A stretch of DNA of 64,000 nucleotides from positions 2,272,001 through 2,336,000 of the forward strand of contig CP084166.1 of the NCBI GenBank assembly GCA_021513695.1, written 5' to 3'. Shown piece after piece: positions 6,520 through 20,916 of this stretch. The DNA comes from Candidatus Heimdallarchaeum aukensis. GTDB taxonomy: Archaea; Asgardarchaeota; Heimdallarchaeia; Heimdallarchaeales; Heimdallarchaeaceae. The translations under genes were made by a program, and so were the position numbers. The notes under the pieces are model-generated. The model saw only the letters and a list, made by a program, of their open reading frames with translations, did not search any database and was not told the origin of the DNA. How positions within the stretch are numbered: position 1 is the first letter of the stretch; the number at the start of each line of letters is the position of its first letter.

Positions 6520-7773
6520 TTAACTTTGAATTTGTAAAGAATGATGGTATGCTTCTTTTTCTGTTTTTTGAAGAATAGAACTGTAACCTTTTTCTAAATA
6601 ATCCTGAATAATCGAAAGAACTGATTTTGATATGGGAAGTTTAACACTGTTATTAGTTTTCAGTATTTCTTCTATACTCACTTCAAGAGAGTCAAGATAA
6701 AGAGCAGCAGAATAAAGTTCCTTAATAAAGTTGTAATTCTTATGTATAATGAACCCTTTTAAATGAGACATTTTTAATAAAATCTCTGATAAAATTAAAT
6801 TAACCTTATTCGCTTGCTCTGGAATATATCGAATAGGAGAATAACCAAGTTTCATTTCATAATTATATCTAAAAGCTTTAACGCGCGGAAGAACCAATCC
6901 TAATCTTTTGAATGCTTTTCTGTCGAAATCCCCATATTTATCATTGTTTCCGTAAAGCTCTAAATATTTGGCTACCAAATGAGGATAATGTTTTCTAAGG
7001 GTATCAATAAATTCATCTTTATTTCTCCCTGGCTTAAGAGTAAGTCCCCAAGTGATAACATACTCTGCATTAGCTTTTTTTGCTTTGTGAAAAATATTTT
7101 CAATGTTTTCTTTTGTATCTCCAATAAAGGGTAAACATGGATTGAAATAAACCCCAGAATGTATTCCTTCTTTACGTAATTTAGAGATAGCTCGAAAACG
7201 ATCCTCTGAAGAACTAGCACGAGGTTCGAAAATCTTACGAACTGAATCATCCGCGAGAGTGATAGTGAAATTAACACTAGCATAAGTCTGTTCATTAATA
7301 GCTTTAAGCAAGTCAAGATCACGAAGAACGAGAGTGCTTTTTGTGAGAATGAAGACTGGTAATTCATAATCATGTATGACTTGAAGAAGTTTACGAGTAA
7401 GTTGAAGTTCTTTTTCTGCAGGTTGATAGACATCGCAAACTCCTCCACCTACAAAAATAACGAATTTAGAAGGAGAAGGCATCTGAATTCGCTCAACTGT
7501 AGTATCTAAATAGTTGAGTAATGAGTGGGATGAATTAGGAGAAAAAAATCCTCTTTTTTTGAGATATTTCTCCAAGAGCTCTGGAGCATTAACCTTAACT
7601 TTGATTCGATTAGCAAAATCTTCATGCATATAATAGGATTCAGCTTTACCGTCACAATATTTGCAATCGTGCCAACAACCCTGATAGGGATTAAGGTAAA
7701 CTTTAGCCCAAGAGAAAAAAGAAGGTGTTACTTCTTTAATTAACGATTTAGCACGAATACGTTCAATGATCAT
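6520..7773 (-). CDS. radical SAM protein, SplB/COG1533-like
   Basis: N-terminal NPYQGCWHDCKYCDG (CxxxCxxC) as in the 'DNA repair photolyase' radical SAM family. Long helical C-terminal extension. Confidence 0.6.
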   Translation of the reverse strand: MIIERIRAKSLIKEVTPSFFSWAKVYLNPYQGCWHDCKYCDGKAESYYMHEDFANRIKVKVNAPELLEKYLKKRGFFSPNSSHSLLNYLDTTVERIQMPSPSKFVIFVGGGVCDVYQPAEKELQLTRKLLQVIHDYELPVFILTKSTLVLRDLDLLKAINEQTYASVNFTITLADDSVRKIFEPRASSSEDRFRAISKLRKEGIHSGVYFNPCLPFIGDTKENIENIFHKAKKANAEYVITWGLTLKPGRNKDEFIDTLRKHYPHLVAKYLELYGNNDKYGDFDRKAFKRLGLVLPRVKAFRYNYEMKLGYSPIRYIPEQANKVNLILSEILLKMSHLKGFIIHKNYNFIKELYSAALYLDSLEVSIEEILKTNNSVKLPISKSVLSIIQDYLEKGYSSILQKTEKEAYHHSLQIQS

Positions 7774-7876
7774 TGTTTTCCCAATTAATCAAATAGAGTT
7801 TTTTTTATTTATAAAGATAGTTAGGTTGCTAGATTATCACCTTTAGATAAAGAAAAAAAGACATAGAATTAAAATA

Positions 7877-8947
7877 TTAAAACGATAAGGAAAAAAAGTC
7901 ATTGTTATTAAGTTTCGAATGAAACAAATAGCTTTTCCATTCAAGTTTACACGAACAAGAAGGTAAGTCCTGAAGAATATTGGGATCTTGAGAAAGAGTG
8001 AAATCTTTTAGGGCTTGAACAATTGTAGAGTCACAAGAACCACAGTTATGAGCTCCTCTCTTTTTACCTCCTGCAACAGGGTCACAAATGATTCTTAAGT
8101 TGGGATAGAGAGTAGAAAGTTCTCGGCAGATATGTACAAGTGACCATAAGTAGGGGGGACGATAAAGATTCTTATCAAAAAGTGAAGAGAGATAAGTGTC
8201 GCGTTGTATATTTATTGCATTAATTGATACGGTGTCTACCCCTAAAGAAACAACCTGTCTAACACTGTTAAAAACGTCCAACATGGAGTCAAATTCTGAA
8301 ACAAAAGGTGGTTTGAAAAGAAGGTAAGCTTTAATTTTTGCCCCAAAGGAAAAAACACGTTTTGTAGCACGTTCGAAATCTTCCCAAAAGAAACCTTTGT
8401 TTATAGAATCACGAAGAATAGCATTATTCGCACTTTCTAATCCTATAGCAATCTCAACTTTAGAAATATCAAAGTGATCACGGAGAAGTGTTAGTTTTTT
8501 TTCTGTAACATATGAAGGTCGAGACTCTAGTACTAACTCTTTAATACTTGACGAATAAGGTTGAAGTTCATGAAGGATAGAAATTAGAACATGGTTTGGG
8601 ACTTCGAGAGAATCAAGAATGCTACCACTAGTAAATAGTTTTATAGAATAAGAAAGGGACGGATCAATTAAAGAGGATAATTTAGAAGAAAAATCAGAGA
8701 GCATCTCTGAAAAATCTGGTTTTTGAGGGTTATCATAAAGATAACCGCAAATTGAACAACCTCCACTACGAGAAAGAGCCCAAGAACAACCTCTTGTAGG
8801 AAGAATAAAAACAATAGCTTTTGCTGGGCCAGTACGAAGACGATGATCTTCAACCCATGCAACAAGACGACGTGAAGTAGAACGCTTGGAAAGGGCTGAT
8901 TGGCGGTAACTATGGATTATGGAACTAAAAGAAGGGTTTATTTTCAT
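7877..8947 (-). CDS. raSEA: archaeosine biosynthesis radical SAM protein RaSEA (TIGR01210-like)
   Basis: Cys cluster region TRGCSWALSRSGGCSICGY and C-terminal CGSC/CSC cysteines. Its ATG overlaps the ArcS stop (ATGA at 8944-8947). ArcS-RaSEA pairing is known in archaea. Confidence 0.7.
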   Translation of the reverse strand: MKINPSFSSIIHSYRQSALSKRSTSRRLVAWVEDHRLRTGPAKAIVFILPTRGCSWALSRSGGCSICGYLYDNPQKPDFSEMLSDFSSKLSSLIDPSLSYSIKLFTSGSILDSLEVPNHVLISILHELQPYSSSIKELVLESRPSYVTEKKLTLLRDHFDISKVEIAIGLESANNAILRDSINKGFFWEDFERATKRVFSFGAKIKAYLLFKPPFVSEFDSMLDVFNSVRQVVSLGVDTVSINAINIQRDTYLSSLFDKNLYRPPYLWSLVHICRELSTLYPNLRIICDPVAGGKKRGAHNCGSCDSTIVQALKDFTLSQDPNILQDLPSCSCKLEWKSYLFHSKLNNNDFFSLSF

Positions 8948-13379: not shown

Positions 13380-14165
13380 TTATTCTCCTATTTCTGTTAT
13401 CTTTATTTTGGGTTGATTCTCTTTTATTTTATCCATCAAAAACCTTTTTGCTTTTGCGACTATTTTTTCTCCTTCTTCTCCAGAATATGAAAAATGAATT
13501 GTTATTCCTTTTCTTTCTCCAAATTGAGGATGAGATTTAACATACAGTTTTTTAAATTTCTTCTTTGTTTGATTAATATAAGGTGCTATCTCACTTTCTC
13601 TACAGTTTTCTATCAGTATTTTACATTCTGTTATGCGGGTTTTTATTTTAGACGATAGGTAAGGGTGAATAGCCGTTGTGTATATAGATTTCACCTCCGT
13701 TGGGACACCAGGCAAACAGAATATCTCTGTTTTCTTATATTTTATTAAACATCCTGGCGCTGCTCCCGCACTGTTGTTTAGTATTTTTCCTCCTTCAGGT
13801 ATCATTGCCATCTTTCTTCTCTCTTCACTCATTTCTAATCCATACTTTTCATAATGCTCTTTTATTAACTCTAAGGCTTCTTTATTTTCTATAAGTCTCT
13901 TTCCTGTTACTCTTGATATAACTTCCATTTGTATATCATCATATGTTGGACCCAATCCACCTGTGACAATCAATATTTCTGGTTCTCTCTCTATGACTTC
14001 TTTAATGCACTCGCTTGCTTGTTCTAGATCATCCCTTACACTAGTTATTCTTCTTACTTCTATTCCTAATCTGGTTAGCTGTTCTCCAAGGTAAGTTGCG
14101 TTTGTATTAACAGTAATTCCCATTAGCAGTTCGTTTCCTAAACAAACAATCTCCGCTGTAACCAT
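13380..14165 (-). CDS. CinA-family MoCF-binding domain protein (COG1058-like)
   Basis: N-terminal AEIVCLGNELLMG...TNATYL and VTGGLGPTYDD motifs of the CinA/MoaB-like fold. Confidence 0.7.
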   Translation of the reverse strand: MVTAEIVCLGNELLMGITVNTNATYLGEQLTRLGIEVRRITSVRDDLEQASECIKEVIEREPEILIVTGGLGPTYDDIQMEVISRVTGKRLIENKEALELIKEHYEKYGLEMSEERRKMAMIPEGGKILNNSAGAAPGCLIKYKKTEIFCLPGVPTEVKSIYTTAIHPYLSSKIKTRITECKILIENCRESEIAPYINQTKKKFKKLYVKSHPQFGERKGITIHFSYSGEEGEKIVAKAKRFLMDKIKENQPKIKITEIGE

Positions 14166-15420: not shown

Positions 15421-16050
15421 ATGCATTCCTATTTAAAAAAATTTCAAGAAGTTGCACAATCAATTGAAACAGAACTTAATAAAAAATCAACTTTAAAGGA
15501 AAAGTTGCTAAAGTTATCTCGTGATCTAGTAAAAACTTCTGGAAAAGTTATTTCAAATGTCCATTCAAAAAGAGTAAACGAAGCAGAACAGTTGCTCTCT
15601 ACTGCTATGTCACTTCACTCTCAGATCTGTGAGTTACTTTCTCAAGATCCGTCTTTTACAGATTCAGGATATATTTTAACAGCTTTACAAGAGTTTACTG
15701 AAGCCCACATTTTCTTCTCTTTGATTTCTAATTCTCCAATTCACTCTCCAACAGAGTTAAATGTAACTGATCAAGCTTACTTGTTAGGAATTGCAGATGT
15801 TATTGGAGAACTTCGGAGGCATATTCTTGAGATATTAATAAATGATAATATTGAGGAAGCAAAGAGGTTTTTTCAATTAATGAAAGACTTGTATGATATT
15901 TTCTTACAAATAGAAATCGACAAATCTTTGATCAGTGACTTTAGAAGAAAGCGGGACATGGCTAGAGTTTTGATAGAAAAAACTCTCTCCGATTTGTTTA
16001 TTGCAATTCAAAGTAAAAGATTAGAACTAAAAATGAAAGACTTAAGCTAA
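15421..16050 (+). CDS. translin-family protein (COG2178-like)
   Basis: All-helical, 209 aa, with YLLGIADVIGELRR block characteristic of translin/TRAX. Confidence 0.6.
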   Translation: MHSYLKKFQEVAQSIETELNKKSTLKEKLLKLSRDLVKTSGKVISNVHSKRVNEAEQLLSTAMSLHSQICELLSQDPSFTDSGYILTALQEFTEAHIFFSLISNSPIHSPTELNVTDQAYLLGIADVIGELRRHILEILINDNIEEAKRFFQLMKDLYDIFLQIEIDKSLISDFRRKRDMARVLIEKTLSDLFIAIQSKRLELKMKDLS

Positions 16051-17423
16051 TCTCTTGTAATAATTAATACTCCCACATCCATTACGTTTGTACCAGTGTA
16101 TCCCGTGATTATTTCTCCATGGAATTTATGGAAAAAACTATTCGTATCATGCTTTTTTAAACTCTTTTTTGCCTCTTTTTTTCTTAGTCTGTTACTAATT
16201 GTAAACGGCCCTACAATTGCTCCAGCTGCCTCAGAATTTCCGTCAATACCATCAGTTCCAAATTCAATAAGATATGCTTTTTTATTCTTTCCTAGCTTTA
16301 ATACAAAAGACAGAGCTAACTCTTGATTTCTTCCGCCTTTTCCAATATTTTCTGTATTTTTAGGAAGTTCTACTGTGGTTTCTCCACCCCACAAAAAAAC
16401 TCTCTCTCGTGGATTTTTTTTCACATATTTTTTAGCTATCCACTTACCTATTTTTGCAGCCTTTCCTTCAATGTTGTATGAAATTATTTCTCCATCGATA
16501 TTGTTTTGCTCTAAAATGTTTTCTCTTAAATGGTTTAGAACTACTTGGTTGCTACCGATTAATACATTATTTACTTTACGGAATTTTTCTCTATCTTTCG
16601 GAGTTTCATAATTTTTTTGTTTATGTCTATCTTGTAGTATCTCTTTTACTTCTATTGGTAATTTCTTTTCAATTTTGTATTTTCTAATTATTCTTTTACA
16701 GTCTTCCCATGTTGTTGTATCCATAACCGTAGGACCTGAAGATATGTTTGTTGGGTCATTCCCTGGTACATCAGAGATAATAAATGAATAGATATTTGCA
16801 GATGTATAGTTAACTATTTTTCCCCCTTTGATTTGAGAAAAGTGTTTTCTTACAGTATTTATTTCATGTATTGTGGCACCACTTGATAATAAAAGTTTCA
16901 TTAACTTTACATAACTATCCATTTTGATTATTGGTAGTTCAAATAGAGATGATCCTCCTCCTGAGATGAGGAAAATGCAAACATCTTGTTCTTTTAATTT
17001 TGACAGTATTTCGATTGTTTTTTTGGCAGCTTTTATACTTTCATCATTTGGTATAGGATGTCCTCCCCTAAAAAAATGACAATTTGGGATATTTTTTATT
17101 TTATCACTTGGTTCATCAGGAGAAGAAATAAGTATCTGATTAAAGGAATAGGGGGCATTTGTTATAAACCAATTAGCCATTGTCTGTGCTGCTTTTCCAA
17201 ATGAAATTAAGTAAAAATTTGCATTTTTGTCAAATACAAATTTCTCTTTTTTGCATATCAAGCTATTTTCTTCAAATTTTATATTTCTATTCAAAAAAGA
17301 ACTCGGTTGTGCAAAATTTATAGCTTCTTCTGCTGTATCTAATAGAAGTTTTACATATTTTCTTTCCTTCTCATCTGAGATTTTTGATAGAATTTCTCTC
17401 TTATTTTTAATCCATTCACTCAT
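16047..17423 (-). CDS. glycerate 2-kinase (MOFRL/DUF4147 family)
   Basis: FGKAAQTMA, LISGGGSSL, WGGETTV, GGRNQELALS and GTDGIDG blocks. Confidence 0.8.
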   Translation of the reverse strand: MSEWIKNKREILSKISDEKERKYVKLLLDTAEEAINFAQPSSFLNRNIKFEENSLICKKEKFVFDKNANFYLISFGKAAQTMANWFITNAPYSFNQILISSPDEPSDKIKNIPNCHFFRGGHPIPNDESIKAAKKTIEILSKLKEQDVCIFLISGGGSSLFELPIIKMDSYVKLMKLLLSSGATIHEINTVRKHFSQIKGGKIVNYTSANIYSFIISDVPGNDPTNISSGPTVMDTTTWEDCKRIIRKYKIEKKLPIEVKEILQDRHKQKNYETPKDREKFRKVNNVLIGSNQVVLNHLRENILEQNNIDGEIISYNIEGKAAKIGKWIAKKYVKKNPRERVFLWGGETTVELPKNTENIGKGGRNQELALSFVLKLGKNKKAYLIEFGTDGIDGNSEAAGAIVGPFTISNRLRKKEAKKSLKKHDTNSFFHKFHGEIITGYTGTNVMDVGVLIITRD

Positions 17424-17426
17424 TCT

Positions 17427-18062
17427 TTACATCCTGATGTTCTTTTGGATAATTTCTTGCATAATTTTTGAGGTTGATTTTCCTGGAACATATTGATTTA
17501 ATCTGATTATCTTTATATGTTCTAATCTATTCTCTTTTAATCTATTCTTTAGATCTTCTTCATTGAATTTTTGGTCATAACCTAAAGCTATAATATCTGG
17601 CATTATCTGCTTTACTGTTAAAATGAAATCTTCTTCATTTCCAATAACTGCCACATCTACATCTTTTATGTGGGCTATTACTTGTGCTCGATCCTTTTGC
17701 GAATTTGTTGGTTCGCGTTTTTTTAATTTCCTAACATTATTATCTGTAGTTATAACTACAACAAGCACATCCCCTAGTAACTTTGCCTGTTTAAGGGTAA
17801 AAATATGCCCAATGTGAATGAGGTCAAATACTCCCCCAGTCATAACTACTGAAATTTGTTTCCTCCCAAATTCTGTCAACGATAAATCATTTTCGTCTTG
17901 TCTTGCCAAAGAACCATTTCTTATTAATTCGTTAACAGTTTCTTGGATAATCTCTACAGGCAGTTCTAATCTTCGAGCAAGGTTTATACTATTCGTCTTT
18001 CTTTTTACTAATATGTCACAATAAGCATGTCTTAGAATCAAATTATCAATTGAGCCTGTCAT
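17427..18062 (-). CDS. ribL: FAD synthetase RibL-type cytidylyltransferase-fold enzyme with N-terminal winged-helix domain
   Basis: GGVFDLIHIGHI (HxGH) nucleotidyltransferase core in the C-terminal ~140 aa. Extra ~70-aa N-terminus (INLARRLELPVEIIQETVNELIRNGSL) looks like wHTH. Confidence 0.65.
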   Translation of the reverse strand: MTGSIDNLILRHAYCDILVKRKTNSINLARRLELPVEIIQETVNELIRNGSLARQDENDLSLTEFGRKQISVVMTGGVFDLIHIGHIFTLKQAKLLGDVLVVVITTDNNVRKLKKREPTNSQKDRAQVIAHIKDVDVAVIGNEEDFILTVKQIMPDIIALGYDQKFNEEDLKNRLKENRLEHIKIIRLNQYVPGKSTSKIMQEIIQKNIRM

Positions 18063-18068
18063 CTTTTA

Positions 18069-18761
18069 TCAACTTTTTTTTAATGAATATCGAATTATTA
18101 TTTCGTCTCCGTCCTTCAAGTTAAATTTTTCCCTAATATTAATGTCACTTACAATTTCTGCTATATTTTTTCCATAATGCGTTCTTCTTGGAACAATAAT
18201 TGCAGCTTTTTCATCAGAGTCAAATAGTTTAACTGAATAGCATAACACATCTCCAAAACTTCTTCCTTCTTCTTTAAAGCCAGTTATTATCTTTGGAAAT
18301 GATCCTCTAATAAGATCTAATTTCTCGACATCATTAGGGTCTATTCTTACATTTAGTGTTCCAGGGTAAGGGACAAAGCCTAGTGTCTTTTTGAAACTTT
18401 TTACATAACTTGGTTGAGACATATAATATTTTCCTTCTCCAAATCCAGTAAAAACTAATCCACGCAACACAAGTTCTGTTTTATCAGGGTGGATAGCTTT
18501 TTCTAGCTCAAATCGAAGGTTATGTAGTGTCTCAATACCCTTATCAGTTAACTGTGCATTAGAACCTCTAGGGCCTGATTCCCATAAAATAAAATCCATT
18601 GCTGCCAGTTTCAATAAGTATCTTGACGCACTTTGTTGAGACATATTGAATACTTTAGCAACTTCTGTTGTAGTAATCTCCACTTTATGATCGATTGCAT
18701 GCTTTTGTGCTATATATATTAGTAATCCAATCTCTCGATTTGATAAATGAAAAATGTTCAC
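18069..18761 (-). CDS. ribK: CTP-dependent riboflavin kinase fused to N-terminal wHTH (RbkR-like)
   Basis: C-terminal GLVFTGFGEGKYYMSQPSY...PYPGTLNVRI matches the archaeal riboflavin kinase fold. N-terminal TTTEVAKVFNMSQQSASRYLLKL is HTH-like. Confidence 0.75.
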   Translation of the reverse strand: MNIFHLSNREIGLLIYIAQKHAIDHKVEITTTEVAKVFNMSQQSASRYLLKLAAMDFILWESGPRGSNAQLTDKGIETLHNLRFELEKAIHPDKTELVLRGLVFTGFGEGKYYMSQPSYVKSFKKTLGFVPYPGTLNVRIDPNDVEKLDLIRGSFPKIITGFKEEGRSFGDVLCYSVKLFDSDEKAAIIVPRRTHYGKNIAEIVSDINIREKFNLKDGDEIIIRYSLKKS

Positions 18762-19024
18762 GAGTTATCAAAAACATAGATATTTGTACTTTCTTAAATT
18801 TTTCAGTTAATCAACTTAATTTTTTTGCATTTTTTTAATCAATTTTGCTCTCACGGACTTTTAAAGGGGTAGAACTGGTCTTTTATTGTACCATAGTAGG
18901 CGGTTGAGTGCCATACAAAAATAATTAGTTGCTTTTATGTTATCTCCTTCTTTTCATCAAAAGTATATTTTTTTGTAATTCGAATAAAAACCTTTAAATA
19001 TCCAGTTAGAAACTGTATAATGGG

Positions 19025-19050
19025 GACTTACATTTTTATGTAAGTCTTTT
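19025..19050 (+). terminator. perfect 9-bp hairpin followed by T4 (terminator-like or regulatory)
   Basis: gacttacat-tttt-atgtaagtc then tttt. Lies 24 nt upstream of the ATG at 19074. Confidence 0.3.
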
Positions 19051-19073
19051 ACATCTGATTGGAGTGAAGAAGG

Positions 19074-19208
19074 ATGTCTCGAAAAGAATCAGTGAAAAAA
19101 ATAGATGAGGAAGTAAAGAAATTGAAAGAGAAATTAGAAAAAGATGGAAAGAAAAGTGTTTCGTCTAGAGAATGGGTGAATTACGAAACTTTCAGTATTA
19201 TTTTTTAG
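19074..19208 (+). CDS. possible small basic coiled-coil ORF (44 aa), not in track
   Basis: ATG preceded by ggagtgaagaagg. Translation MSRKESVKKIDEEVKKLKEKLEKDGKK.... Stop 11 nt before the next ATG. Coding status unproven. Confidence 0.3.
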   Translation: MSRKESVKKIDEEVKKLKEKLEKDGKKSVSSREWVNYETFSIIF

Positions 19209-19219
19209 GAGGAATAAAA

Positions 19220-19516
19220 ATGAAAGAAGAAAATTACAATTTTGATTTATGGTCTGAAGAGCTATCAAAATCAATAAGAAATTGGGTTGAAACAACAATA
19301 TGCAATTTACAGAATGACCTAAAACAATTCCATGGTCCATTGAAACAATTCTCACAAATTTCATCAGAAGGAATACAAACTGCATTGGTTAATTTTACAA
19401 CAAATCTAAAAGAAACAATAACAGAATTATCGGAAGATTTCTTAGATACAATAGAAGATGCTCTTGATGCTATTGAGGATGTAATGGAAGATCTAGAAGA
19501 AGCTGCTGAAGAATAA
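19220..19516 (+). CDS. small acidic hypothetical protein (98 aa)
   Basis: ATG at 19220 preceded by aggagg. The track's 19172 start is probably over-extended. C-terminus strongly acidic (EDALDAIEDVMEDLEEAAEE). Confidence 0.5.
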   Translation: MKEENYNFDLWSEELSKSIRNWVETTICNLQNDLKQFHGPLKQFSQISSEGIQTALVNFTTNLKETITELSEDFLDTIEDALDAIEDVMEDLEEAAEE

Positions 19517-19785: not shown

Positions 19786-20916
19786 ATGAGTGATGATGAT
19801 GAATATAAAATAAAGAAGGAATTGGAAGAATTAAAGAAAAGAAATCAAGAATTAGAGAAAATGATTAAAGCTGTATTTAACAGAATGGATAAGATAAATG
19901 GTTCAAGAAAAGAAGATGAAAAAACAGGTGATAATGTCTCTGATAAAATCGAAAAAAAAGAGATTGAAAAGCTTCTTGAAAAAGATCTCAGACGGTTAAA
20001 AAAGGAAAGAATCAGCAACCAACATCATAGACACCACTTCTCTCCTAATTTAGAAGAAAGAAGATTTGAACGTGATGAGAGAGTTCATTCGATACGAAGA
20101 GCTCCTTCTCCTCCTAGCGCTCCTTCTACACCTAGAACTCCTTCCACACCTAAAGAACCTTTACCTCCAGAACATATCGGTCGTCCTCCAAGAAAACACA
20201 TTTTATTGTCTAAAGAAGAGATTGCTCGAGCTAGAGAAGAGATTAAACGTGCAAAGGAAGAGCTTCGACGAGAAAGAGAACGAATGAGACTTGAAGCTAG
20301 AAGAAAAGCTTTAGAATCTGCAAAAAAATCTGATGTTAAGCCATTTATTTTTTCTAAAAATATCGATTTAGATGGTTTTGGAGAAACAATCTCAAAGTAC
20401 GTTGAAAGTATCCTAGAATCTGTTTCAAGAAATATCGAAGAAACTGTAAAAAGTGCTTTTTCAACAGAAAAATCTTCAACTGGTAGAATCTCTGGTTCCA
20501 ATTTTCCCACATCAAATAAAAAGGCTAGTAAATTTTCCTTTCCTTACGATTACAGGAGGATTCCTATAGACGAAATAGAATCCTACCTTGATGAGATATC
20601 TGAGCTTTTATCTGCAATAGGTGATAAGAATCGATTACATATCTTAAAATTGCTTGAACTTCAACCTGAATATCAAAAAGAGCTTTCAGAAAAAACTGGT
20701 CTTCGTGGTGGTACATTTAAGCATCATACAGACATTCTTGCAAAAAATGGACTTATTACACAAGAAACAGTAAGAGGAAGATATCTTATAACACAACTAG
20801 GGATTGAAGCTCTAAAGTTAGCAGAGATATTATATACCAGAAAACAGGACCTGTATTCTTCAGAAGATTCGTTAGATGATGAAGATGATGATGAAATAAA
20901 TATTGATATTAATTAG
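19786..20916 (+). CDS. coiled-coil / proline-rich / C-terminal ArsR-type wHTH fusion protein
   Basis: ggagg RBS. C-terminal NRLHILKLLELQPEYQKELSEKTGLRGGTFKHHTDILAKNGLI is ArsR/SmtB-like. Central APSPPSAPSTPRTPSTPKEPLPPE tract, flanking K/E/R coiled coil, acidic tail. Confidence 0.7.
   Translation: MSDDDEYKIKKELEELKKRNQELEKMIKAVFNRMDKINGSRKEDEKTGDNVSDKIEKKEIEKLLEKDLRRLKKERISNQHHRHHFSPNLEERRFERDERVHSIRRAPSPPSAPSTPRTPSTPKEPLPPEHIGRPPRKHILLSKEEIARAREEIKRAKEELRRERERMRLEARRKALESAKKSDVKPFIFSKNIDLDGFGETISKYVESILESVSRNIEETVKSAFSTEKSSTGRISGSNFPTSNKKASKFSFPYDYRRIPIDEIESYLDEISELLSAIGDKNRLHILKLLELQPEYQKELSEKTGLRGGTFKHHTDILAKNGLITQETVRGRYLITQLGIEALKLAEILYTRKQDLYSSEDSLDDEDDDEINIDIN

Follow-up and report, generated by a model that had tools for sequence, protein, structure and literature searches.

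The rbkR-ribL locus of Candidatus Heimdallarchaeum aukensis

A stretch of 64,000 nucleotides (nt) from Candidatus Heimdallarchaeum aukensis (contig CP084166.1, positions 2,272,001 to 2,336,000 of the forward strand; hereafter the window) was analysed for two consecutive flavin-cofactor genes, rbkR and ribL. The first encodes a riboflavin kinase that depends on cytidine triphosphate (CTP), and the second a RibL-type flavin adenine dinucleotide (FAD) synthetase. A sequence-only reading of this DNA had taken both proteins to be enzymes fused to an N-terminal DNA-binding regulator, and the analysis was chiefly concerned with the N-terminal domain of RibL. The features of the two genes and of the gene that follows them are as below, with protein lengths in amino acids (aa).

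18069..18761, minus strand: rbkR, winged-helix regulator and CTP-dependent riboflavin kinase, 230 aa, starting at GTG, coordinates including the stop codon
18471..18761, minus strand: N-terminal winged-helix domain of RbkR, residues 1-97, with the recognition helix SQQSASR at residues 41-47
18063..18068, minus strand: 6-nt spacer from the rbkR stop codon (TGA) to the ribL ATG, sequence AGTTGATAAAAGATGACA
17427..18062, minus strand: ribL, RibL-type FAD synthetase, 211 aa, ATG start
17850..18062, minus strand: N-terminal winged-helix domain of RibL, residues 1-71, from AlphaFold, Foldseek and hhalign
17919..17957, minus strand: helix 3 of the RibL N-domain, VEIIQETVNELIR, residues 36-48, at the recognition-helix position
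17862..17879, minus strand: LTEFGR, residues 62-67 of RibL, where the N-domain joins strand 1 of the catalytic core
17430..17849, minus strand: catalytic nucleotidyltransferase domain of RibL, residues 72-211, from PF01467 and 3glv
17805-17816, minus strand: HxGH motif of RibL, H83-H86
16047..17423, minus strand: glycerate 2-kinase (DUF4147 and MOFRL), third gene of the transcription unit, after a 3-nt gap from ribL

The order on the minus strand was rbkR, ribL and the glycerate 2-kinase gene, with spacers of 6 and 3 nt, and a spacer of only 6 nt implies that rbkR and ribL are co-transcribed. The same three-gene block was kept in six other Heimdallarchaeaceae loci (L003, L004 and L087-L090), where it was followed by a convergent translin-family gene, a polyprenyl synthase gene and a CinA/MoCF-type gene. 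The glycerate kinase gene came after ribL in L001-L004 and in L087-L090. The locus is thus a conserved Heimdallarchaeaceae operon of rbkR, winged-helix ribL and glycerate 2-kinase, in agreement with the sequence-only reading that the two flavin genes stand consecutively in one operon. The link between rbkR and ribL was missing in L001, which carries a 63%-identical relative, and in Nitrosotenuis, where rbkR lies 3 kb off on the other strand. No paralogues of either gene were present elsewhere in the 64-kb window.

The riboflavin kinase belongs to the RbkR family

The open reading frame (ORF) at 18069-18761 matched PF01982 over residues 103-224 (E 1e-39), and its phmmer alignment with Thermoplasma acidophilum RbkR (taRbkR; 3cta/5trd) extended through both domains (E 1e-34 for residues 24-224). 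The GxGxG, TLN, Tyr, Glu and Arg residues of the site for CTP and flavin mononucleotide (FMN) (PMC5397151) were all kept in comparison with 3cta. The score against NF010762, 'wHTH domain/riboflavin kinase', was 188 bits, under the curated cutoff of 279. Homologues begin at the same N-terminal residue, with GTG, TTG or ATG, which fits the GTG start assigned here.

The recognition helix, SQQSASR, was identical to that of taRbkR, in which Ser38, Gln39, Gln40 and Ser41 touch the operator TTACT-N8-AGTAA at its bases and backbone; the published operator motif of the SQQS-type RbkR is TTAC-N10-GTAA (PMC5397151). Across 117 homologues, S41, Q42, Q43, A45 and S46 of the window protein were 96-100% conserved, and the wing contained conserved Arg/Lys. 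FAD has no effect on RbkR, and RibL has been treated as a plain enzyme that is sometimes placed inside RbkR regulons (PMC5397151). Since the Heimdall archaea lay outside the 2017 RbkR survey by Rodionova et al. (PMC5397151), the window protein adds a new member to a known family, no more than that. Judged by its sequence, it is an ordinary RbkR, as the sequence-only reading had recognised, within the known family of FMN-responsive regulator/kinases, and FMN-sensitive DNA binding and kinase activity can be predicted for it. By the same measure, nothing else in this locus bears the marks of a sequence-specific DNA binder.

The catalytic core of RibL

The 211-aa RibL was 100% identical to the database entry P0001, 'FAD synthase [Ca. 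Heimdallarchaeum aukensis]'. A PF01467 cytidylyltransferase domain covered residues 74-201 (E 7e-19), with the HxGH core GGVFDLIHIGHI at residues 76-87. The closest solved relative was 3glv, an uncharacterised 143-aa archaeal protein from Thermoplasma volcanium (E 6e-27, 42% identity, alignment from query residue 73, TM-score (TM) of 0.92 normalised to the target), which was far ahead of HldC (E 3e-13) and TagD (E 2e-9). In the family alignment G77, D80, H83, G85 and H86 were invariant and the C-terminal consensus was PGxSSSKI. The GCT-like nucleotidyltransferase fold, with its HxGH and C-terminal (I/S)S(S/T)K motifs, was therefore present in the window protein. No NCBIfam equivalog was matched up to its cutoff. 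The FAD synthase name given by the source databases, together with the synteny with rbkR, is the basis on which RibL is predicted to be an adenylyltransferase acting on FMN and adenosine triphosphate (ATP). To our knowledge, RibL is the only archaeal FAD synthetase known and has been characterised only as the short form of Methanocaldococcus jannaschii.

RibL carries an N-terminal winged helix

Residues 1-71 are additional to this core, because the PF01467 match starts at residue 74 and the alignment with 3glv at query residue 73. An AlphaFold2 model of full-length RibL, built on a 36-sequence alignment, had a mean predicted local distance difference test score (pLDDT) of 88 and a predicted TM-score (pTM) of 0.83. 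The block means over residues 1-70 were 81-96, and the pLDDT stayed high across the junction with the core. In this model the N-domain consisted of helices at residues 5-18, 25-32, 36-48 and 64-68, strands at 52-54 and 60-62, and a bridge at 23. The resulting topology, H-b-H-H-b-b-H, is that of a winged helix, and the isolated domain folded alike.

Foldseek searches of the PDB placed the N-terminal domains of DtxR/IdeR on top (TM 0.82-0.87, including 0.86, root-mean-square deviation 1.3-1.9 A, over 65-72 residues), followed by MarR-type domains. A profile of the RibL N-domain matched the winged helices of MntR/DtxR, Lrs14 and AdcR/MarR in the PDB, the best single-domain match being 5zr4 (E 8e-6); one artificial repeat protein outscored it, only through summed repeats. 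At lenient thresholds, the 36 winged-helix RibL members matched wHTH-PRTase_assc (17/36), HTH_45 (16/36), TrmB (10/36) and MarR_2 (6/36), and four of the 36 matched PF08100, an O-methyltransferase dimerisation domain. When the RibL and RbkR N-domain profiles were compared with hhalign, they aligned with a probability of 95.7% over helix 2, helix 3, the wing and helix 4. The winged-helix N-terminus of about 70 aa that had been proposed for RibL is consequently well founded in its fold, its structural neighbours and its profile matches. No solved structure in the PDB spanned both RibL domains, the maximum query-normalised TM being 0.54.

Relatives with 44-92% identity covered 100% of the RibL query, and the N-domain could be aligned across phyla. 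Compared with the RibL of the sister species (L087, 92% identity), codons 1-71 contained 18 synonymous and 10 non-synonymous differences and the catalytic part 38 and 6, which points to purifying selection on the N-domain, yet more relaxed than on the catalytic part. From these comparisons the extension is judged to be translated and under purifying selection, and the internal Met is accordingly not the start. The alternative that the true start is Met74, just before the core, with the upstream 70 codons untranslated, could be prompted by the position of this Met (VVMTGG), exactly where short RibLs start, and by a homologue, P0003, that was called at 193 aa. At the P0003 locus (L088 4001-4582), the start had been called too late and the full 211-aa N-terminus, MTGTLENLILRN, was found in frame upstream. 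In the window there is no room for a separate promoter, as only 6 nt separate the rbkR stop codon from the ORF. With conservation as protein across phyla, the codon counts and a confident fold also against it, the internal start, which the sequence-only reading had named as a possible refutation, was ruled out; we give it virtually no chance.

Distribution of the winged-helix form of RibL

At least 64 residues preceded the GxFDxxHxGH motif in 108 of the 120 best relatives of the window RibL. The named sources in this protein search were Heimdallarchaeaceae, Thorarchaeota, Nitrososphaerales, Nitrosopumilaceae, Nitrosotenuis, Methylarchaceae and Bathyarchaeota. Among 80 ribL loci returned from GTDB species genomes, about 27 had the long form, mainly in Nitrososphaerota and Bathyarchaeia; they included Nitrosopumilus, Nitrososphaera, Nitrosocaldus, Conexivisphaerales, Bathyarchaeia and a few others. 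Core-only RibLs of 130-160 aa were found in the same scan in Thermoplasmata, Methanosarcinales, Methanomicrobiales, Methanobacteriales, Archaeoglobi, Poseidoniales, Thermoprotei and DPANN, and also in one Promethearchaeota (Loki) and one Njordarchaeota genome. On these sequences, the form of about 205-215 aa is the usual RibL of Nitrososphaerota and occurs also in Bathyarchaeia, Heimdall and Thor archaea. The H. aukensis genome is therefore not peculiar in having this widespread architecture.

When the N-domain profile was searched against 1.84 billion representatives, end-to-end matches in a single stretch were found only in RibL-like proteins of about 205-230 aa or fragments of them, the remaining matches being to tandem winged-helix repeat proteins and DtxR-like regulators. 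As far as such matches indicate, the domain is dedicated to RibL. Precomputed Pfam assignments gave PF01467 alone for all but five of the 120 relatives, and the database names ('FAD synthase/cytidylyltransferase') are silent on the extra domain. The sequence-only reading had allowed that the architecture might prove both common and already annotated; it is common, and the annotation extends to the FAD synthase and leaves the extra domain unmentioned. No published description of a winged-helix RibL was found in the literature searched, and the fusion is apparently undescribed, as that reading had supposed.

A different N-terminal domain, DUF357 (PF04010), was present in RibL of at least two Desulfurococcales loci (L034 and L068; E 5e-15 and 2e-19), and a similarly long ORF lay upstream of the RibL core in L080, a Desulfurococcales/Pyrodictium ribL locus. 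In Nitrosopumilaceae, the gene directly upstream of winged-helix ribL encoded a TP_methylase-DUF357 fusion (e.g. Nitrosotenuis, L005 3926-4960). The occurrence of DUF357 both fused to RibL and beside winged-helix ribL suggests that it is linked to FAD synthesis.

Helix 3 and wing of RibL compared with those of RbkR

The RbkR encoded next door served as a positive control for the comparisons of recognition helix, wing and charge. Column entropy along helix 3 was 1.0-3.2 bits in RibL, lowest at the buried L46 (108 sequences), compared with about 0 for the SQQ[ST]ASR helix of RbkR (117 sequences). Acidic residues made up 30-69% at positions 36, 37, 41, 44 and 45 of RibL helix 3, and the wing loop was net acidic. 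The net charge of helix 3 plus wing averaged -2.3 in the RibL family, with 81% of members negative and 11% positive (n=108), whereas it averaged +2.5 in the RbkR family, with 93% positive and none negative (n=117). For the window proteins the values were -4 (RibL) and +1 (RbkR), and the mean of the Asgard-like RibL subgroup was -2.8. A conserved, DNA-compatible recognition helix and wing was thus lacking in the RibL N-domain.

What is conserved in this domain is the hydrophobic core together with L62 (94%), T63 (94%), G66 (100%) and R67 (99%; 108 sequences). No polar motif of the N-domain other than LTExGR, to which these belong, was near-invariant, and T63, G66 and R67 precede strand 1 of the Rossmann fold by five to nine residues. 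The junction itself differed between the two forms: short RibLs had K/R at position -5 before GxFD in 80% of cases, while in long RibLs position -5 was V/I (97%) and position -1 was Gly (99%), and the Gly-Arg found at -11/-10 was invariant. This systematic difference in sequence suggests that the winged helix is structurally coupled to the catalytic core.

Promoter and operator searches

Two features upstream of rbkR were considered.

18787..18805, minus strand: TGAAAAATTTAAGAAAGTA, likely B recognition element (BRE)/TATA of the operon, 26-44 nt upstream of the rbkR GTG; promoter role putative
19025..19046, no strand: perfect palindrome GACTTACAT-N4-ATGTAAGTC in the divergent intergenic region

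About 95 nt upstream of the rbkR GTG were conserved in comparison with L087. The sole element common to six Heimdall rbkR upstream regions (the window, L003 and L087-L090) was a BRE/TATA-like TGAAAnnnTTAAG(T/A)A about 25-50 nt upstream of the start, which, from its sequence and position, is presumably the BRE/TATA of the Heimdallarchaeaceae lineage. Heimdall ribL, preceded by the 6-nt spacer only, has no promoter region of its own and shares that of rbkR.

The published RbkR motif, TTAC-N10-GTAA, had no match upstream of rbkR in 18700-19120 with up to one mismatch; only a TTAC-N8-GTAA was found, at 19028-19043. Three exact TTAC-N10-GTAA matches in the whole window all lay inside ORFs, and 12 of 100 shuffled sequences reached three or more, so that the number is within chance. 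These matches were dropped as intragenic and at chance level. No riboflavin-biosynthesis gene was identified among the annotated ORFs at 13.4-22 kb of the window, and there was thus no rib promoter to scan. A second palindrome, TTGATAA-N18-TTATCAA, straddles the rbkR GTG (18740-19180 searched); it is only partly kept in the sister species and was set aside as an operator.

The palindrome at 19025-19046 has perfect arms of 9+9 and holds the TTAC-N8-GTAA, a spacing that differs from the N10 of the published motif (PMC5397151). Counted from rbkR, it lies 264-285 nt upstream; a small plus-strand ORF (ATG at 19073, about 44 aa) begins 27 nt beyond it and is followed by a 114-aa ORF at 19172-19516. 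A third half-site, TTTACAT, lies just downstream of the palindrome, which was only partly conserved in L087, and no further copies beyond chance were found in the window. Being nearer to the divergent gene, with N8 spacing and no extra copies, it was not retained as a likely operator of the operon.

Upstream of 26 winged-helix ribL genes from other lineages, no shared dyad was found beyond shuffled controls, with the exception of a dyad in four near-identical Nitrosopumilus loci, where it falls within the end of the upstream coding sequence. Of the palindromic operators that the sequence-only reading had advised looking for, none was conserved upstream of the operon or of stand-alone winged-helix ribL genes, in a search of low power.

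Possible functions of the RibL winged helix

On its sequence features, the RibL winged helix is probably not an operator-reading module in the style of RbkR or NadR; it would lack specific DNA binding and have a structural role. That it is a structural or interaction module integrated in the enzyme has, in our estimate, an even chance of being right. A winged helix distantly like those of DtxR and MarR, fused straight to strand 1 of the nucleotidyltransferase core, might for example cap or buttress the active-site entrance via the invariant LTExGR junction; its task could alternatively be oligomerisation or partner binding. Several considerations speak against this view. In the modelled fold, the closest structural relatives of the domain are real DNA-binding domains. 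The prior for a regulator is not low, because RbkR, in the same pathway, and NadR, in the same enzyme superfamily, are fusions. GCT-type nucleotidyltransferases are dimers, and a dimer would present two winged helices like a classical repressor. Recognition helices can be variable when operators co-evolve. A real MntR-like domain has a charge of -1 on the same helix 3 and wing segment, so charge alone does not settle DNA binding and is suggestive rather than absolute; 16% of TACK-like winged-helix RibL members are net positive. The operator search, finally, had low power, since the DNA is AT-rich, the loci were few and diverse, and rib promoters were lacking.

One alternative is a trigger enzyme, in which a dimer of winged-helix RibL would bind DNA with an affinity set by FMN, ATP or FAD in the active site and, together with the FMN-sensing RbkR, would provide two-tier control. 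In its favour, the domain most resembles the DNA-binding domains of DtxR/IdeR and MarR, is homologous to the RbkR N-domain and has been retained in several phyla, and its members match the TrmB, MarR_2, HTH_45 and GfcR-type 'wHTH-PRTase_assc' models. NadR is an analogous combination of a helix-turn-helix (HTH) domain and an HxGH nucleotidyltransferase, and RibL matches NF005988 weakly (residues 29-125, E 0.0012). RbkR itself provides a precedent in the same pathway, and the inertness of FAD towards it leaves a sensing gap (PMC5397151). However, helix 3 and the wing form a surface that, in contrast to RbkR, is acidic and variable, and the conserved residues are those of the hydrophobic core and the junction motif, not the DNA-facing positions. 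Moreover, no conserved palindrome lies upstream of the operon or of the monocistronic winged-helix ribL genes, and Heimdall ribL is under the promoter of RbkR. A trigger enzyme is considered possible but doubtful. The wider proposal, that TACK and Asgard archaea have in winged-helix RibL a second transcription factor that senses flavins, providing FAD-level feedback and making the Heimdallarchaeaceae rbkR-ribL pair a two-sensor FMN/FAD module, would seem unlikely. On the same evidence, the variable, acidic helix 3 and wing told against RibL as an enzyme-regulator fusion, and the layered FMN/FAD autoregulation envisaged by the sequence-only reading found no support. An improbable further alternative is that the winged helix recruits a macromolecule other than DNA, namely RbkR, RNA or another protein. 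Winged helices that do not bind DNA include those of the Rio2 kinase and the O-methyltransferase dimerisation domains, and the latter, as PF08100, are among the matches recorded above. Were RbkR the partner, contact between the two winged helices could serve to hand over FMN from the kinase to the adenylyltransferase or to tune the DNA binding of RbkR. The homology of the two N-domains, the adjacency of the genes in Heimdallarchaeaceae and an acidic surface suited to protein-protein contacts would agree with this, as would the occurrence of RbkR in named lineages with winged-helix RibL, namely Thaumarchaeota (PMC5397151), Heimdall and Bathyarchaeia. On the other hand, adjacency is missing in L001 and Nitrosotenuis, the pairing of RbkR with a short RibL in Thermoplasmata and Loki means that RbkR does not require the winged helix, and the poor conservation of the exposed surface argues against a fixed partner.

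Whichever function applies, a large share of archaea, including Bathyarchaeia, the Heimdall and Thor archaea related to eukaryotes and the ammonia-oxidising Nitrososphaerota, which are ecologically dominant, use the longer RibL, and its winged-helix domain has been missed by current Pfam annotation. If the domain binds DNA, there is a second regulator of archaeal flavin homeostasis, acting at the FAD level. Otherwise it is a clean case of a winged helix taken on as an accessory to an enzyme and a caution against scoring each fusion of an enzyme and a winged HTH domain as a transcription factor in surveys of regulons and transcription-factor repertoires.

Neighbouring genes

The plus-strand gene at 15421-16050, convergent with the rbkR operon and in conserved synteny, encodes a translin-family protein (PF01997, E 1e-9); its NCBIfam label, 'haloacid dehalogenase superfamily protein', looks to be a misleading family name. 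At 13380-14165 on the minus strand lies a gene for a 261-aa CinA-N/MoCF-type protein, which scored 261 bits against NF002291 (under the curated cutoff of 293) and matched Ta0487 (3kbq, E 5e-28). This protein also matched the molybdopterin-binding-like N-domain of human FAD synthase isoform 2 (8ron, E 8e-12, residues 2-218) and, weakly, FLAD1_M. It was syntenic with ribL in all Heimdallarchaeaceae loci examined and, going by these matches, could be an FAD or adenosine diphosphate (ADP)-ribose pyrophosphatase.

On the other side of the operon, the plus-strand gene at 19786-20916, syntenic in L087, encodes a 376-aa protein whose C-terminal part contains an ArsR-type HTH (PF01022, residues 280-325). 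Before it comes a long N-terminal part of charged, coiled-coil-like character that includes a Pro/Ser/Thr-rich stretch, PSPPSAPSTPRTPSTPKEPLPPE; this architecture is unusual for the ArsR family. In the related Heimdall contig L001, ribL and the glycerate kinase gene are followed at 7229-8195 by genes for an Arf-family small GTPase and a Roadblock/LC7 protein, both typical Asgard eukaryotic-signature genes.

Comparison with known systems

The reference enzyme for RibL is that of M. jannaschii, MjRibL (Mashhadi et al. 2010, as cited in PMC5397151 and PMC11423594). The window RibL shares with MjRibL and 3glv the HxGH nucleotidyltransferase core and the ALGYDQ and (S/T)SSK motifs, and differs from them in about 71 more N-terminal residues, in V/I for K/R at -5 and in the invariant GR upstream. 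MjRibL has two C-terminal cysteines, which have been linked to its air sensitivity (PMC11423594). The window RibL lacks these, its sole cysteine being C15 in the N-domain. Since EhFADS is also without them, the cysteines are a property of MjRibL and not of the activity.

The DNA-binding domain of DtxR, IdeR and MntR shares the helix 1 'IY' and the 'LTxxGR' patterns with the RibL N-domain. RibL, however, has neither the metal-binding nor the dimerisation domain of these regulators, and the positions corresponding to their DNA contacts are not conserved and are often acidic.

NadR (HTH, nicotinamide mononucleotide adenylyltransferase and ribosylnicotinamide kinase) and BirA (HTH and biotin ligase) have been discussed as 'trigger enzymes' (PMC5397151), and winged-helix RibL resembles them in joining an N-terminal HTH-type domain to a cofactor-adenylylating enzyme. 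The NadR transferase belongs to the same HxGH superfamily as RibL, and the similarity to NF005988 is driven by the HxGH region. In contrast to these proteins, winged-helix RibL has no kinase domain, its winged helix is like those of DtxR and MarR and not of the NadR or BirA type, and any DNA binding by it is doubtful.

A further comparison is with RbkR. Both proteins act in the same pathway and combine an N-terminal winged helix, homologous at the profile level, with a C-terminal flavin enzyme. The catalytic folds differ, and helix 3 and the wing are invariant and basic in RbkR but variable and acidic in RibL; the operator known for RbkR has no counterpart, predicted or found, for winged-helix RibL.

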